The notes beneath the pieces are model-generated. The model worked only from the letters and a program-made list of their open reading frames with translations, was not told where the DNA came from and searched no databases. From positions 1 through 39,211 of IMG/VR virus record IMGVR_UViG_2778261139_000004: a DNA stretch of 39,211 nucleotides. One strand, 5' to 3'. Origin of the DNA: a virus (lineage: Duplodnaviria > Heunggongvirae > Uroviricota > Caudoviricetes). Below, one piece after another: positions 21,807 to 29,058 of this stretch. The position numbers and the translations under genes are program-made. How positions within the stretch are numbered: position 1 is the stretch's first letter; each line of letters starts with the position of its first letter.

Positions 21807-23036
21807 GTGAGTATGAAAAAGCAAGATGAGTCCCCCAAAGCTGATAAATCAAATTTAGATAAAAGTGAGTCTGAACCACCAAAAGCGAACTCTATGGCAG
21901 ATGCCATGGCCATAGCGGCAGAGGTTGCTACGACAGCAACGTCAGTTCAAACATCAACCTTTGCAATTATCGCGGATTTTCTACGTTCAGGTGGTATAGA
22001 AAAACTAACTTCAAATGCTATCAAAAATTTAGAAATAAAAGTAAAGGGCCATTCTCAAGCGACAAGAACTACGGTATTGAGGAACCTGAAGACCTCTTTC
22101 AAAGAGGAGAATTTAGTTCTTGTTTTAGGTGCTGGCATTTCTTTAGATTACAGCATACCAACATGGAGTGAATTATTAAAGCGGCTATTGGCAAGAGCTT
22201 TGGATGATAAAAATGAAAATCAGAAAATGGTATCGGTTTTGTTTAATGAGGTTTTCGGTCCGAACGCACTCATAGCAGCCAGATATCTAAAACTACACTT
22301 TGATGGTATTAATACTCCCTTGGAAAAAGAAATTCAGCATGTTTTGTATGAATATTATCAGGAGGAAGAAAGCAGTACATTGAAAGCAATCAAGAAATTG
22401 TGCATATCGGCAGGCAAGTCACCAGGTCTAGATTCCGTTATTACATATAACTATGATGATATTTTGGAACAGACATTAACTAGAGCTGATGTTGGTATAA
22501 AGTATAAGGTGATTTCAAAGACGGGGCAGCATGCAAAAAATGATGAACTGCCGATCTACCATGTGCATGGCTATCTCCCATTGCAGGGGAAAGTTGAACT
22601 CGATGACACGCTAGTCCTTTCTGATGAAAGCTATCATAGGCAATACATGGATTTATACCATTGGAGCAATATGGTTCAGTTGAATAAATTCAAAGATGGA
22701 AATTGCCTGTTTGTTGGTCATTCCTTTACAGATCCAAACCTCAGAAGGTTGATGGATACAGCCAAAAAACTTAGAGGGAATGATTCTAAACCTCATTATT
22801 TAATTAAGTGTAGACATTCGAAAGAAGATGTGATTGCTAATATTCAAAGAATTGTTAGTGACTCAAGAAATGGATTTGATAATAAACTGAATATTAATGA
22901 GGATGCAATCGCGACCTCTCTTTTACAGACAGTGCATACTTTTGAAGAAATCGATGCTAATTCATTTGGCGTGAATGTTATTTGGATCGACTCTTACGAT
23001 GAGATTGCACCAATACTTAATGATCTAACACAATAA
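21807..23036 (+). CDS. SIR2-like (SIR2_2 / DUF4020-type) domain protein, putative NAD-depleting defence effector (cargo)
   Basis: 409 aa with the SIR2-like motifs VLVLGAGIS ... PTWSELL, ITYNYDDILEQ, IYHVHGYL, LVLSDESY and LFVGHSFTDPNL. AT-rich, inserted between S and V. Confidence 0.75.
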   Translation: MSMKKQDESPKADKSNLDKSESEPPKANSMADAMAIAAEVATTATSVQTSTFAIIADFLRSGGIEKLTSNAIKNLEIKVKGHSQATRTTVLRNLKTSFKEENLVLVLGAGISLDYSIPTWSELLKRLLARALDDKNENQKMVSVLFNEVFGPNALIAARYLKLHFDGINTPLEKEIQHVLYEYYQEEESSTLKAIKKLCISAGKSPGLDSVITYNYDDILEQTLTRADVGIKYKVISKTGQHAKNDELPIYHVHGYLPLQGKVELDDTLVLSDESYHRQYMDLYHWSNMVQLNKFKDGNCLFVGHSFTDPNLRRLMDTAKKLRGNDSKPHYLIKCRHSKEDVIANIQRIVSDSRNGFDNKLNINEDAIATSLLQTVHTFEEIDANSFGVNVIWIDSYDEIAPILNDLTQ

Positions 23037-24943: not shown

Positions 24944-25541
24944 TCTGCTGCCACCGGGTTCAACACCACTGGAGCGCCGACTGGCGCAGACCTGCAGCGG
25001 GATTTCTGATCTGCAGGTGCCGCTGCGTGACTTGTGGAATCCGGCTACCTGCCCGGTCAGCTTCCTGCCTTATCTCGCCTGGGCGTTCTCTGTGGATCGC
25101 TGGGACGAGGGCTGGACGGAAAGCGTCAAACGACAGGTGGTGAAGGATGCTTTTTATATTCATCAGCATAAAGGAACCACCAGTGCCGTGCGGCGGGTGG
25201 TGGAGCCGTTCGGCTTCCTGATCCGCATTATTGAGTGGTGGCAGACCGGAGAAACACCGGGTACGTTTCGCCTGGATATCGGCGTGCAGGACCAGGGCAT
25301 CACTGAAGATACCTATCTGGAACTTGAGCGACTGATAAGCGATGCCAAACCATGTAGCCGTCACATGATCGGCATGTCCATCAATCTGCAGACCAGCGGC
25401 CCGCATTGGGTGGGAGCCGCCAGCTATCTTGGCGAAGAAATCACGATCTATCCGTATATCAACGAAACAATTATTTCCGGCGGCACCGCGCATGAAGGTG
25501 GGGCGGTCCATGTTATTGACACAATGAGAGTGAATCCATGA
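24936..25541 (+). CDS. I: Tail protein I
   Basis: 201-aa ORF overlapping the J stop. Confidence 0.8.
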   Translation: MNSLLPPGSTPLERRLAQTCSGISDLQVPLRDLWNPATCPVSFLPYLAWAFSVDRWDEGWTESVKRQVVKDAFYIHQHKGTTSAVRRVVEPFGFLIRIIEWWQTGETPGTFRLDIGVQDQGITEDTYLELERLISDAKPCSRHMIGMSINLQTSGPHWVGAASYLGEEITIYPYINETIISGGTAHEGGAVHVIDTMRVNP

Positions 25542-27022
25542 GCACAAAATTTTATACCCTGCTGACGGATATTGGCGCGGCGAAACTTGCCAGCGCCGCC
25601 GCGCTCGGTGTGCCTTTAAAAATTACCCATATGGCGGTGGGCGATGGTGGCGGAACATTGCCGACGCCGGACGCAAAGCAGAGTGCACTGGTAAATGAGA
25701 AACGCCGGGCTGCGCTGAATATGCTCTATATCGACCCGCAGAACAGCAGCCAGATTATTGCTGAACAGGTGATCCCTGAAAACGAGGGCGGTTGGTGGAT
25801 ACGTGAAGTGGGCCTGTTTGATGAGTCAGGGGCATTGATTGCCGTGGGAAACTGCCCGGAAAGCTATAAACCGCAACTAGCTGAAGGCAGCGGGCGCACC
25901 CAGACCGTGCGCATGGTGCTGATTACCAGCAGTACGGACAATATCACCCTGAAAATCGACCCTGCTGTAGTGCTGGCAACCCGTAAATACGTGGATGATG
26001 AAGTCCTGGAATTAAAGCTGTATGTGGATGACCAGATGAGAAACCACATTGCCGCACAAGATCCTCATACCCAGTATGCGCAGAAACATAATCCGACATT
26101 TACCGGAGAACCAAAAGCGCCGACGCCTGCAGCAGGAAATAACACCACGCGGATTGCGACCACTGAGTTTGTTCAGGCCGCTATTACTGCTCTGATTAAC
26201 GGTGCGCCAGCCACGCTGGACACACTGAAAGAAATTGCCGCAGCCATTAACAATGACCCGAAATTCAGTACCACCATTAACAATGCGCTGGCACTAAAAG
26301 CCCCGCTGTCGAGTCCGGCACTCACCGGAACGCCAACAGCACCTACTGCGGCACAGTCGGTCAACAATACACAGATTGCCACTACAGCTTTTGTGAAATC
26401 AGCGATTGCAGCAATGGTGGGTTCTGCACCTGCGGCACTGGATACACTGAACGAACTGGCGGCGGCATTGGGGAATGATCCGAACTTTGCCACGACAATG
26501 CTTAATGCGCTGGCAGGTAAACAACCGCTGGACAATACGCTTACCAATTTGAGTGGAAAGGATGTAGCTGGTCTTCTCGCATACCTTGGTTTGGGAGAAG
26601 GCTCTGCATTACCTGTTGGTGTGCCTGTTCCATGGCCTTCAGCCACACCGCCAACAGGCTGGCTGAAATGCAACGGTGCGGCATTTTCTGCTGAAGAATA
26701 CCCGGAACTGGCAAAGGCTTATCCAACAAATAAATTACCTGATTTACGCGGTGAGTTTATTCGTGGCTGGGATGATGGGCGCGGGGTGGATTCCTCTCGT
26801 GGTTTGTTGACATCTCAAGACCATTTATTTGCTTCTCATGGGCACTGGTTTGACAAGTACTATGCGCTAACAGGTTTTGATCCAACGGGAGGTCGGTTCG
26901 TAGTTACGGCTGATGCTTTCGGGGAACTTATTACGGCAAATTCAATTTCTACGGTATCGGTTGGTGGTTCTGAAACCCGGCCGCGCAACGTCGCATTTAA
27001 CTATATCGTGAGGGCAGCCTGA
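25538..27022 (+). CDS. H: Tail fibre protein H, with the C-terminal variable part inside the invertible segment
   Basis: 494 aa with Ala/Thr-rich internal repeats; the C-terminal region lies beyond the recombination site at about 26586. Confidence 0.85.
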   Translation: MSTKFYTLLTDIGAAKLASAAALGVPLKITHMAVGDGGGTLPTPDAKQSALVNEKRRAALNMLYIDPQNSSQIIAEQVIPENEGGWWIREVGLFDESGALIAVGNCPESYKPQLAEGSGRTQTVRMVLITSSTDNITLKIDPAVVLATRKYVDDEVLELKLYVDDQMRNHIAAQDPHTQYAQKHNPTFTGEPKAPTPAAGNNTTRIATTEFVQAAITALINGAPATLDTLKEIAAAINNDPKFSTTINNALALKAPLSSPALTGTPTAPTAAQSVNNTQIATTAFVKSAIAAMVGSAPAALDTLNELAAALGNDPNFATTMLNALAGKQPLDNTLTNLSGKDVAGLLAYLGLGEGSALPVGVPVPWPSATPPTGWLKCNGAAFSAEEYPELAKAYPTNKLPDLRGEFIRGWDDGRGVDSSRGLLTSQDHLFASHGHWFDKYYALTGFDPTGGRFVVTADAFGELITANSISTVSVGGSETRPRNVAFNYIVRAA

Positions 27023-27624
27023 TGAATAAAGCCGTATTAAATAGCGAACTCATTACTACAAAGGCAGGAAACATTACCGTTTATAATTTTGATGCTGAGA
27101 CGAAGGAATATCTTTTCACATCAACCGAATATCTTGTTGTGGGTGTCGGTATTCCGGCGTATTCCTGTTTAGATGCTCCTGGTACATATAAGGCTGGTTA
27201 TACTATCTGCCGTTCAGCAGATTTAAAATCATGGGAATATATGCCAGACCATCGCGGTGAAATCGTTTTTAGCACCGAAACAGGGGAATCAAAAGAAATC
27301 ACAGCTCCGGGTGATTACCCTGATAATACAACCACTATCGCCCCGTTAACGCCATACGATAAATGGGATGGTGAGAAATGGGTGACGGATACCGAGGCAC
27401 AGCACGGCGCAGCAGTAGATGCAGCAGAAGCACAGCGCCAGTCGCTGATTGATACTGCAATGGCCTCCATCAGTCTGATTCAGCTGAAATTGCAGGCCGG
27501 ACGTAAACTGACGCAGGCAGAAACAACCCGCCTTAACGCTGTGCTGGATTACATTGACGCGGTGACGGCAACAGATACCAGCACCGCGCCGGATGTCATC
27601 TGGCCTGAACTGCCGGAGGCGTAG
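27022..27624 (+). CDS. G: Tail fibre assembly protein (G-like)
   Basis: 200 aa, ends ... APDVIWPELPEA. Confidence 0.8.
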   Translation: MNKAVLNSELITTKAGNITVYNFDAETKEYLFTSTEYLVVGVGIPAYSCLDAPGTYKAGYTICRSADLKSWEYMPDHRGEIVFSTETGESKEITAPGDYPDNTTTIAPLTPYDKWDGEKWVTDTEAQHGAAVDAAEAQRQSLIDTAMASISLIQLKLQAGRKLTQAETTRLNAVLDYIDAVTATDTSTAPDVIWPELPEA

Positions 27625-28048
27625 GCCATTCAATATCTGGCGCACCGGAAGTATCGACCAGCTCCAGTGCGTCCAGATAATCCAGCCACAAATTATATTG
27701 CGCCAGTTCATCATCTTTCAGACGACCAATAGCGGCTTTACCGGGCCATTGCTTACTGTTCATGTATTCGTTGGCCTGGTTAATTAGTAGCTGTCTTTCT
27801 GATTCAGTAATTTCAATAAGTTCTTCATGCGTGGGTGGAGGAATATCTGCCCACGCAGGCAGCCCATCATCTCCGGCAATACGGATTTTTCCTTGTGGCG
27901 GTTCAGCCATAAACTCACTGATAATATTTTGATTTACTTCCTTAGCGTCTGATAAATCCCATCCCTCTGATTTATATTTATCAATCATATCCACAGGGAA
28001 AAAAGCATTATGCCTTGCGCTATAAACATATTCGTTCATATAAATCAC
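27596..28048 (-). CDS. Alternative tail fibre assembly protein (G') in inverted orientation
   Basis: 150 aa, ends ... APDIEWPTPP, paralogous to the G C-terminus; convergent with G. Confidence 0.75.
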   Translation of the reverse strand: MIYMNEYVYSARHNAFFPVDMIDKYKSEGWDLSDAKEVNQNIISEFMAEPPQGKIRIAGDDGLPAWADIPPPTHEELIEITESERQLLINQANEYMNSKQWPGKAAIGRLKDDELAQYNLWLDYLDALELVDTSGAPDIEWPTPPAVQAR

Positions 28049-28059
28049 CCTGAATAAAA

Positions 28060-28434
28060 TTACTCACCAACAGCCCACCAACTGTAATTCATCGATACCG
28101 TGTCGCTGGTTGATGACGTTCTGTAAGCAGAATTAAAGCCGGTTAACGTTGGGCCTTCTGCAGTCATCACGAACCCTCGCCCAGCGCCTAAAGGCGCACC
28201 GCCATCACCAGAATGAGTAAGCATGGCGCAGTCCGCTTTTTTGGGGAAAGGGATGCTGAATGTAATTCTCATTGTTTGCGTCGATAATGTCGGCGTAACC
28301 GCACCACGACCATATTGCAGGATTTTCCCGTTAGGTAATTTCATCCATCCATCACCACTGGCAAAAGAGGCCATGTCCGGTATCTGATTTTCCCCTGTCC
28401 CCACATCCCGTTTTGCCGCTTCTCCCAAACCAAC
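28060..28434 (-). CDS. Promoterless alternative tail-fibre C-terminal cassette (H'), expressed only after inversion
   Basis: Minus-strand reading frame running from the right crossover site to a stop at 28060; it shares the LGLGE junction with H. The Met in the ORF track is unlikely to be a real start. Confidence 0.55.
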   Translation of the reverse strand, partial: VGLGEAAKRDVGTGENQIPDMASFASGDGWMKLPNGKILQYGRGAVTPTLSTQTMRITFSIPFPKKADCAMLTHSGDGGAPLGAGRGFVMTAEGPTLTGFNSAYRTSSTSDTVSMNYSWWAVGE

Positions 28435-28500
28435 GTTTAAGAAAATGCAGAGATAATGGCTAACTGGCATCATCCCCGGTTTTTATTCAGGGGATTGATC

Positions 28501-29058
28501 ATGCTTATTGGCTATGTACGCGTGTCAACAAATGACCAGAACACCGATTTGCAACGTAATGCACTGAACTGCGCGGGATGTGAGCGGATTTTTGAGGATA
28601 AAATCAGTGGCACTAAGTCCGACAGACCGGGGCTGAAAAAACTGCTCAGGACACTATCGGCAGGAGACACGCTGGTCGTCTGGAAGCTGGACAGGTTGGG
28701 GCGCAGTATGCGGCATCTTGTTACGCTGATAGAAGAGTTGCGCCAGCGTGGCGTGAATTTCCGAAGCCTGACTGACAGTATTGATACCAGTACCCCAATG
28801 GGCCGTTTCTTTTTTCATGTCATGGGTGCCCTGGCTGAAATGGAACGCGAACTGATAGTTGAACGCACTATGGCAGGGCTGGCTGCAGCTCGTGCCAAAG
28901 GCAGAGTAGGTGGACGCCGTCCTAAGTTGACCACCGAACAGTGGGCACAGATTGGACGTTTACTCGAGGCCGGAGAATCAAGACAGCGTATTGCGCTGAT
29001 TTTTGACGTGGGCGTTTCTACCATTTATAGAAAATTTCCGGCGAATAAGAGCAATTAA
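28501..29058 (+). CDS. pin: Serine DNA invertase (Pin/Gin/Hin/Cin family)
   Basis: MLIGYVRVSTNDQNTDLQRNAL ... with the catalytic serine in YVRVSTNDQ, DRLGRS, and a C-terminal HTH; very close to e14 Pin as recalled. Confidence 0.9.
   Translation: MLIGYVRVSTNDQNTDLQRNALNCAGCERIFEDKISGTKSDRPGLKKLLRTLSAGDTLVVWKLDRLGRSMRHLVTLIEELRQRGVNFRSLTDSIDTSTPMGRFFFHVMGALAEMERELIVERTMAGLAAARAKGRVGGRRPKLTTEQWAQIGRLLEAGESRQRIALIFDVGVSTIYRKFPANKSN

Follow-up and report, generated by a model that had tools for sequence, protein, structure and literature searches.

A tandem pair of 74-residue modules in a phage tail fiber, with one-, two-, and three-unit alleles among Escherichia coli prophages

A 39,211-nucleotide (nt) stretch of DNA from a virus of the class Caudoviricetes (IMG/VR record IMGVR_UViG_2778261139_000004, positions 1 to 39,211; referred to here as the window) contains a gene, H, that encodes a tail fiber of 494 amino acids (aa) (positions 25538 to 27022, plus strand). 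In its current orientation, the open reading frame (ORF) joins a constant part to an invertible C-terminal part downstream, and the constant part carries two related units of 74 aa that lie head to tail. We consider it probable that these units are a tandem pair of an ancient and widely shared shaft module whose copy number has been shifted by rare unequal recombination. Close relatives of the gene carry one, two, or three units, and units at the altered junctions are chimeric. Change in copy number is a rare evolutionary event and not a programmed switch, because the DNA sequences of the units differ too much to recombine frequently and the variants have become fixed in lineages.

Two diverged copies of a 74-residue unit in H

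Self-alignment of H placed unit A at aa 185 to 258 (positions 26090 to 26311, plus strand; NPTFTGEPKAPTPAAGNNTTRIATTEFVQAAITALINGAPATLDTLKEIAAAINNDPKFSTTINNALALKAPLS) and unit B at aa 259 to 332 (positions 26312 to 26533, plus strand; SPALTGTPTAPTAAQSVNNTQIATTAFVKSAIAAMVGSAPAALDTLNELAAALGNDPNFATTMLNALAGKQPLD). In close relatives, hmmsearch with a profile of the unit gives coverage of profile positions 1 to 74, and unit B is included in a structural model of aa 259 to 345 that is described below. An initial annotation made from the sequence had reported two related tandem stretches in this gene, and both are present: one begins with NNTTRIATTEF at aa 201 (nt 26138) and the other with NNTQIATTAF at aa 276 (nt 26363). 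The repeat that it described is real, while its length of about 55 aa and its starting point were not borne out. The apparent "spacer" between the two stretches (SSPALTGTPTAPTAAQSV) is homologous to the residues ahead of the first stretch (HNPTFTGEPKAPTPAAGN). Because these segments align with one another, the unit is 74 aa long, A and B are directly adjacent with no spacer between them, and the array begins 48 nt earlier than had been proposed. The similarity of the two copies is far above that of shuffled sequences. When the halves of the shaft were aligned locally with each other (BLOSUM62), the score was 215, compared to 34.7 ± 6.2 and a maximum of 64 in 2,000 shuffles (z = 29).

The two units are nonetheless diverged. 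They share 43 of 74 residues (58%) and 136 of 222 nt (61%), with identities of 69%, 77%, and 38% at the first, second, and third codon positions, respectively, and the same codon is used at only 22 of the 43 conserved residues. From the low identity at third positions and the differing codons, it follows that the duplication is old and that the protein sequence was kept while synonymous sites drifted. Of the exact DNA matches that A and B share, the two longest are a 12-nt AATGCGCTGGCA (positions 26282 to 26293 in unit A and 26504 to 26515 in unit B, plus strand) and an 8-nt ACACTGAA in the codons of the LDTLK motif (positions 26222 to 26229 in unit A and 26444 to 26451 in unit B, plus strand). 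With 61% identity and no exact match longer than 12 nt, A and B are not near-identical head-to-tail DNA units. Neither Tandem Repeats Finder (0 rows at a minimum score of 30) nor a seed-based repeat finder reported a DNA repeat at A and B, as the repeat is confined to the protein level. In other words, the pair is an old duplication under protein-level constraint, and it is a protein repeat as opposed to a slippage-prone DNA repeat.

Copy-number alleles and their junctions

The initial annotation had suggested that repeats of this kind can vary fiber length by recombination and that copy number be compared among related prophages. That comparison yielded alleles with one, two, and three units in H genes with 80 to 100% identity otherwise, and the chimeric units at their junctions bear out variation by recombination. 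We searched with the constant part of H and counted units in 120 close matches: there are two in 108 of them and three in the other 12. In seven of the three-unit relatives (P0006 to P0012, 543 aa), two units are in tandem, and the third, which is more diverged, lies past the inversion site at aa 361 to 434. This third unit sits in the variable C-terminal cassette, so the module is not confined to the constant part.

The tandem three-unit arrays (P0001 to P0005) are of three kinds. The first, from a complete E. coli chromosome (P0001, locus L001), has the order A-(B|A)-B. At the DNA level, its middle unit follows the allele's own unit B up to ACACTGAA, the 8-nt identity shared by the two units, and its own unit A thereafter. 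The middle unit differs from the best chimera at 3 of 222 nt, compared to 33 and 58 mismatches to either parent alone, and is the expected product when unit B of one copy crosses over unequally with unit A of another. The second kind (P0002, locus L002) also contains a B|A chimera, but an older one that switches at another point, near nt 75, and has 23 mismatches to the best chimera. The third kind (P0003 to P0005, locus L003) has the order A'-A'-B, in which the two A' copies differ at only 2 of 222 nt. Its junction is at the unit boundary, and units of both types start with AGTCCG.

Phage vB_EcoM-640R3 and E. coli strains MNCRE44, O157:H7 E32511, and 571 carry one-unit alleles. The only unit in each is an A|B chimera with a breakpoint in the 12-nt AATGCGCTG(G/T)CA, which corresponds to the longest identity between A and B in the window. 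From there, the sequence runs straight into the linker that follows unit B (in the window, the short NTLTNLSGKDVAG at positions 26534 to 26573, plus strand, between unit B and the crossover site). These alleles are exact 222-nt deletions, and their unit differs from the best A|B chimera at 8 to 13 of 222 nt. Since their left and right parts match the diverged A and B, respectively, the one-unit form was derived from the two-unit form. The reverse polarity, with the one-unit form as ancestor of the pair, can be rejected: the ancestor of a pair that is 61% identical could not match A and B part by part.

Two of the one-unit loci have additional features. In E. coli O157:H7 E32511 (NZ_CP038380.1; locus L007, positions 754 to 1953), H is annotated as broken, with an N-terminal pseudogene fragment and a separate "gp53-like domain-containing protein." Decaying prophages thus harbor at least some of the alleles. 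In vB_EcoM-640R3 (ON470613.1; locus L004), comparison of H codons 1 to 184 with positions 25538 to 26089 of the window revealed a sharp mosaic boundary at the end of the N-terminal domain PF12571. Nucleotide identity is 58 to 73% over codons 1 to 150 and 96% from codon 151 through the unit, suggesting that the whole shaft and tip were exchanged between genera of the Peduoviridae.

The two-unit form predominates among the E. coli records sampled. This part of H is matched in 1,408 of 5,426 complete E. coli genomes (1,428 records), and the A-B arrangement recurs in more than 900 of them. In a sample of 60 evenly spaced records from the 1,428, we used spacing to distinguish two-unit genes (616 nt) from one-unit genes (394 nt, exactly 222 nt shorter). 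About 41 of the 60 have the two-unit spacing, 11 have the one-unit spacing, and none has a three-unit spacing. For probes that span junctions, total hit numbers are not diagnostic of allele counts, since half-matches of ordinary two-unit genes are joined as one place. An 80-nt probe for the A|B junction was matched contiguously (80/80) in seven of the eight top-listed complete E. coli records. For the B|A junction of L001 and the A'|A' junction of L003, all eight records listed for each probe were two-piece matches; a contiguous perfect match would rank first.

We propose that each unit would form one self-contained segment of the shaft in a trimeric fiber. The pair sits in the constant shaft, between an N-terminal domain that binds the baseplate and a receptor-binding tip that is switched by an invertase. 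Gain or loss of a unit is always in frame (222 nt) and would shift the distance from baseplate to tip by a fixed step. Such changes are probably rare, arising by unequal recombination or by replication misalignment at the 6- to 12-nt identities left between the diverged units, and have probably produced the one-, two-, and three-unit alleles now seen in P2-like prophages of E. coli.

Spread and predicted structure of the unit

At E ≤ 1e-3, a profile built from five unit variants, across which 27 columns are invariant, matched 40,924 representative protein clusters, of which 13,429 remained at E ≤ 1e-10. Both units of H align with profile positions 1 to 74, as full-length copies placed head to tail with a period of about 74 aa. 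Arrays of two to nine units with an exact 74-aa period occur among the 150 best representatives, the longest with nine full units (P0122), and the representatives with an H-type N-terminal domain (n = 20) have one to four. Each half of the unit is also found without the other. Some proteins have as many as about 20 repeats of the N-terminal half (xPxFTGxPxAPT…IATTxFV), and the C-terminal half alone is found in minor tail proteins of mycobacteriophages. The A-B pair matched 672 phage records and 33 PHROG families, the majority of which are annotated as tail or tail fiber and the remainder as unknown function. The match to phrog_454 had an E value of 4.3e-82, and phrog_2631 and phrog_7032 are other tail fiber families that cover the unit. 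In gpS of the P1-like phage RCS47, the match to the A-B pair is collinear (81% identity), and single units are found in lambda (annotated as tail fiber protein), R18C, and RE2010.

Despite its very wide distribution, the unit has no model in Pfam or NCBIfam. Searches of Pfam with each unit and with the pair at E ≤ 10 returned only spurious weak matches of the Acyl-CoA_ox_N and HTH_3 type, and no NCBIfam model matched the unit. A literature search with motif strings such as LDTLNELA returned no papers. We also considered whether the unit is the known fiber repeat PF03406 (Phage_fiber_2), defined by a match to the 42-position hidden Markov model above its gathering score of 22 bits. This identity was rejected, as neither H, nor either unit, nor the pair matched PF03406 even at E ≤ 10. 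In three fragments that do contain PF03406 (P0301, P0302, and P0326), the model covers the residues directly upstream of the 74-aa unit, and PF03406 is therefore a different repeat.

An AlphaFold2 (AF2) model of aa 259 to 345, built from a 61-sequence alignment, had a mean predicted local distance difference test (pLDDT) score of 78. In this single-unit model, residues 1 to 24 are extended and are followed by helices at residues 25 to 38, 40 to 54, and 59 to 68. The unit is thus predicted to comprise an extended segment rich in Pro, Thr, and Gly (xPxFTGxPxAPT...IATT) and three short helices (FVxxAIxAL, APxxLDTLxELAxAL, and FxTTxxNALxxK). Sequence matches in the PDB were Bxb1 gp4 (9d93, the Bxb1 tail tip, described in a bioRxiv paper), 80alpha gp68 (6v8i), 9k09, and 9cuy. 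The C-terminal helical half (FVxxxIAALVxSAPxxLDTLxELAxALxxDPxF) matches residues 199 to 245 of Bxb1 gp4 (E = 5.5e-11), and residues 268 to 298 of gp68, the FibU protein of 80alpha, also match the C-terminal half (E = 1.4e-3). The N-terminal half matches fiber chains of 9k09 and 9cuy.

Genomic setting and alternative explanations

The pair lies next to a complete invertible segment of the Gin/Cin/Pin type (positions 26574 to 28445). The left crossover site (positions 26574 to 26600) is inside H, in the codons for LLAYLGLGE, and is a 27-nt inverted repeat that is 81% complementary to the right crossover site (positions 28419 to 28445). The 26-bp crossover sites of invertases listed in PMC4134206 are similar to it. 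Between unit B and this site lie 40 nt, in agreement with the earlier placement of the repeat just upstream of an inversion site. Beyond H lie a tail fiber assembly gene that is cognate to its current C terminus (positions 27022 to 27624, plus strand; PF02413, E = 6.6e-33) and an alternative assembly gene used after inversion (positions 27596 to 28048, minus strand; PF02413, E = 3.8e-31). These two genes are convergent and overlap by 29 nt (positions 27596 to 27624). They are followed by an alternative C-terminal cassette for H with a gp53-like C-terminal domain (positions 28060 to 28473, minus strand; PF21882, E = 1e-12), which joins the constant part after inversion. Last is a serine DNA invertase of the Gin/Cin/Pin/Hin type (positions 28456 to 29058, plus strand), with a resolvase domain (PF00239, E = 8.6e-53) and HTH_7 (PF02796, E = 1.7e-15), named "recombinase family protein" in RefSeq. 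Database proteins with a 99 to 100% identical constant part end either in the Collar domain (494 aa, P0021) or in the gp53-like C-terminal domain (465 to 473 aa, P0014 to P0018, carrying PF12571 and PF21882). Because both cassettes occur on the same constant part, both orientations exist in nature. The system thus has the features of the Gin/Cin/Pin/Hin group: an adjacent invertase with resolvase and HTH_7 domains, inverted sites of about 26 bp with one inside H, and both orientations. It is the true switch at this locus, and the A/B repeat is not part of the switching mechanism.

The wider setting, in what is a P2-like prophage of E. coli, is a P2-type tail block at 23.0 to 30.4 kb. Baseplate genes V, W, J, and I are followed by H, the assembly gene, and the sheath gene, with the inverted second assembly gene, the inverted alternative fiber C terminus, and the serine invertase between assembly gene and sheath. 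The P2 gene order (V, W, J, I, H, tail fiber assembly gene, and sheath FI) is supported by the ORFs, by the RefSeq annotation of E. coli SC475, and by the Pfam content of the homologous locus L001. The SC475 chromosome (NZ_LR778148.1) is 100% identical to positions 25985 to 26600, and its genes are annotated accordingly, with H as "phage tail-collar fiber domain-containing protein." At the N terminus of H is the baseplate-attachment domain PF12571 (aa 1 to 150, positions 25538 to 25987, plus strand; E = 8.7e-65, profile 1 to 150 of 150), and the Collar domain PF07484 occupies aa 361 to 408. On the basis of its N-terminal domain and the synteny, H is a P2 gpH-type fiber. Across the repeat runs an opposite-strand ORF of 166 aa (positions 26173 to 26673, minus strand), apparently a shadow ORF that results from the Ala-rich coding bias of H, with no sign of a real gene. 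Farther upstream, between the tail completion genes and baseplate gene V, is a SIR2-family gene (positions 21807 to 23036, plus strand; 407 to 409 aa) with a GC content of 0.36 to 0.39, compared to 0.53 to 0.61 in neighboring genes. It matches an LmuA-named model (E = 9e-21) and ThsA (E = 2e-20) in PADLOC, is named "SIR2 family protein" in RefSeq, and is probably anti-phage defense cargo of the prophage. We take its position to be that of the nonessential orf30 in P2.

H shares features with several known systems. Fibers of the P2 gpH type in the Peduoviridae, such as gp20 of R18C, likewise have PF12571 at the N terminus and the gene order V-W-J-I-H-tfa. H of R18C carries the 74-aa unit as well, in one copy (aa 256 to 327). 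In R18C and P2-type H, two 42-aa PF03406 repeats (…LSSATNSTSETLAATPKAVK…) precede the single unit, whereas H in the window has two units and no PF03406. It also has a Gin/Cin-type invertible C terminus, which P2 itself is not known to have. The invertible tail fiber genes of Mu (S/S'), P1 (S), e14, and p15B (reviewed by Sandmeier 1994, PMID 8065255) and of the E. coli EC958 prophages Phi1, Phi2, and Phi4 (PMC4134206) resemble the window in having a repeat-bearing constant 5' part and an invertible 3' part accompanied by its assembly gene, together with a serine invertase and crossover sites of roughly 26 bp. However, the constant part of the EC958 invertible fiber genes is described as PF03406 repeats (PMC4134206), while the repeats in H are a different unit without a Pfam model. 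The tail collar fibers of Bxb1 (gp4) and FibU (gp68) of Staphylococcus aureus phage 80alpha match the C-terminal helical half of the unit, but they contain half a unit in a single copy and are accessory fibers of siphoviruses with Gram-positive hosts.

The resemblance to T4 gp37 is mechanistic only. In both genes, a small fiber segment is gained in frame through recombination at short motifs, leaving tandem copies. The motifs in gp37 are the His boxes. It is nevertheless another protein with another motif, located in the receptor-binding tip, and no membership in a common family is implied; moreover, an effect on host range was demonstrated experimentally in T4. According to the account in PMC3157838, in-frame duplications in gp37 arise at short conserved motifs (Tetart 1996, PMID 8637004; Tetart 1998, PMID 9737921).

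Several points weigh against the view that the pair is a shaft module whose copy number shifts by unequal recombination. All four one-unit alleles examined have the identical breakpoint, and they may reflect a single event instead of recurrent ones. The one-unit gene of E32511 is annotated as a pseudogene, and function therefore cannot be assumed for every variant. On the structural side, the full-length AF2 model of H, from a shallow alignment of 21 sequences, had a pLDDT of 33 and was kept out of the fold search, and fold searches with the single-unit model gave nothing specific. The region of 80alpha FibU that matches the unit lies beyond residue 123 and is not resolved in the structure, so FibU was dropped as a structural guide. 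Finally, the change in fiber length is one that we infer from alleles that gain or lose 74 residues in frame; trimeric packing of the helices and any effect on adsorption or host range are likewise presumed.

Alternatively, the units could serve mainly as conserved "linker" homology for swapping receptor-binding C termini between unrelated phages, with copy number as a neutral by-product. We regard this as possible, although it falls short of being probable. The unit is present in fibers of P1-like, lambda, Mu-like (BcepMu), P2-like, and actinobacteriophages and in the 33 PHROG families, and the mosaic boundary in H of 640R3 adjoins the module. Furthermore, swapping of adhesin specificity via conserved fiber motifs is established in T-even phages (Tetart 1998, PMID 9737921, cited in PMC3157838). 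However, the 640R3 boundary is at the end of the N-terminal domain and not within the unit, and conserved residues together with saturated synonymous sites argue that protein, not DNA, has been maintained. A linker role is compatible with a shaft module that changes by rare recombination and could be a second role alongside it. A more far-reaching proposal is that the unit is an uncatalogued "spacer" domain, present in at least 40,000 clusters from phages of Enterobacteria to those of Actinobacteria, whose copy number (from one to nine or more) is tuned by selection so that the reach of the fiber fits the thickness of the host O-antigen or capsule. We think this unlikely.

It is also conceivable that the repeat is a programmed contingency locus, in which frequent copy-number change by slipped-strand mispairing or RecA recombination would generate mixed fiber lengths in the manner of the neighboring inversion switch. 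The repeat does adjoin a true programmed switch, with invertase and crossover sites, and copy-number variants exist among relatives. Yet the units are too dissimilar for this, with 61% DNA identity, a longest exact match of 12 nt, and blank results from the DNA repeat finders. Hybrid junctions are few and fixed in lineages, and the 60 sampled records are dominated by the two-unit form, with no three-unit spacing among them. Given the diverged DNA units and fixed junctions, we rejected this explanation as highly improbable. As for a compositional artifact of a low-complexity shaft or a duplication introduced by assembly, the region is rich in Ala, Thr, and Pro and the long shadow ORF at 26173 to 26673 attests to its bias, but we give the idea almost no credence and rejected it because composition-preserving shuffles never exceeded 64, the units align position for position with 27 invariant columns, the arrangement recurs in more than 900 complete E. 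coli genomes, and the copies are diverged, unlike those of an assembly duplication.

Taken as a tandem pair of an old shaft module, the feature is ordinary phage fiber modularity. Repeated fiber modules and recombination at conserved motifs have been known since the 1990s; repetition and rearrangement of tail fiber motifs were reviewed by Sandmeier in 1994 (PMID 8065255), as cited in PMC4134206. On its own, the finding is of small weight, and its new points are modest: a common unit that lacks a domain model, and clean one-, two-, and three-unit alleles with chimeric junctions in E. coli prophages. A domain model for the 74-aa unit would improve the annotation of thousands of fiber genes. Unequal recombination at 6- to 12-nt microhomologies in prophage genes is cleanly exemplified by the chimeric junctions. 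In addition, the natural alleles mark where a P2-type fiber tolerates in-frame shortening or lengthening, which is useful for the engineering of fibers and tailocins. If the unit were a spacer tuned by selection, then the one-, two-, and three-unit polymorphism in P2-like prophages of E. coli would be an adaptive determinant of host range and not a neutral one.

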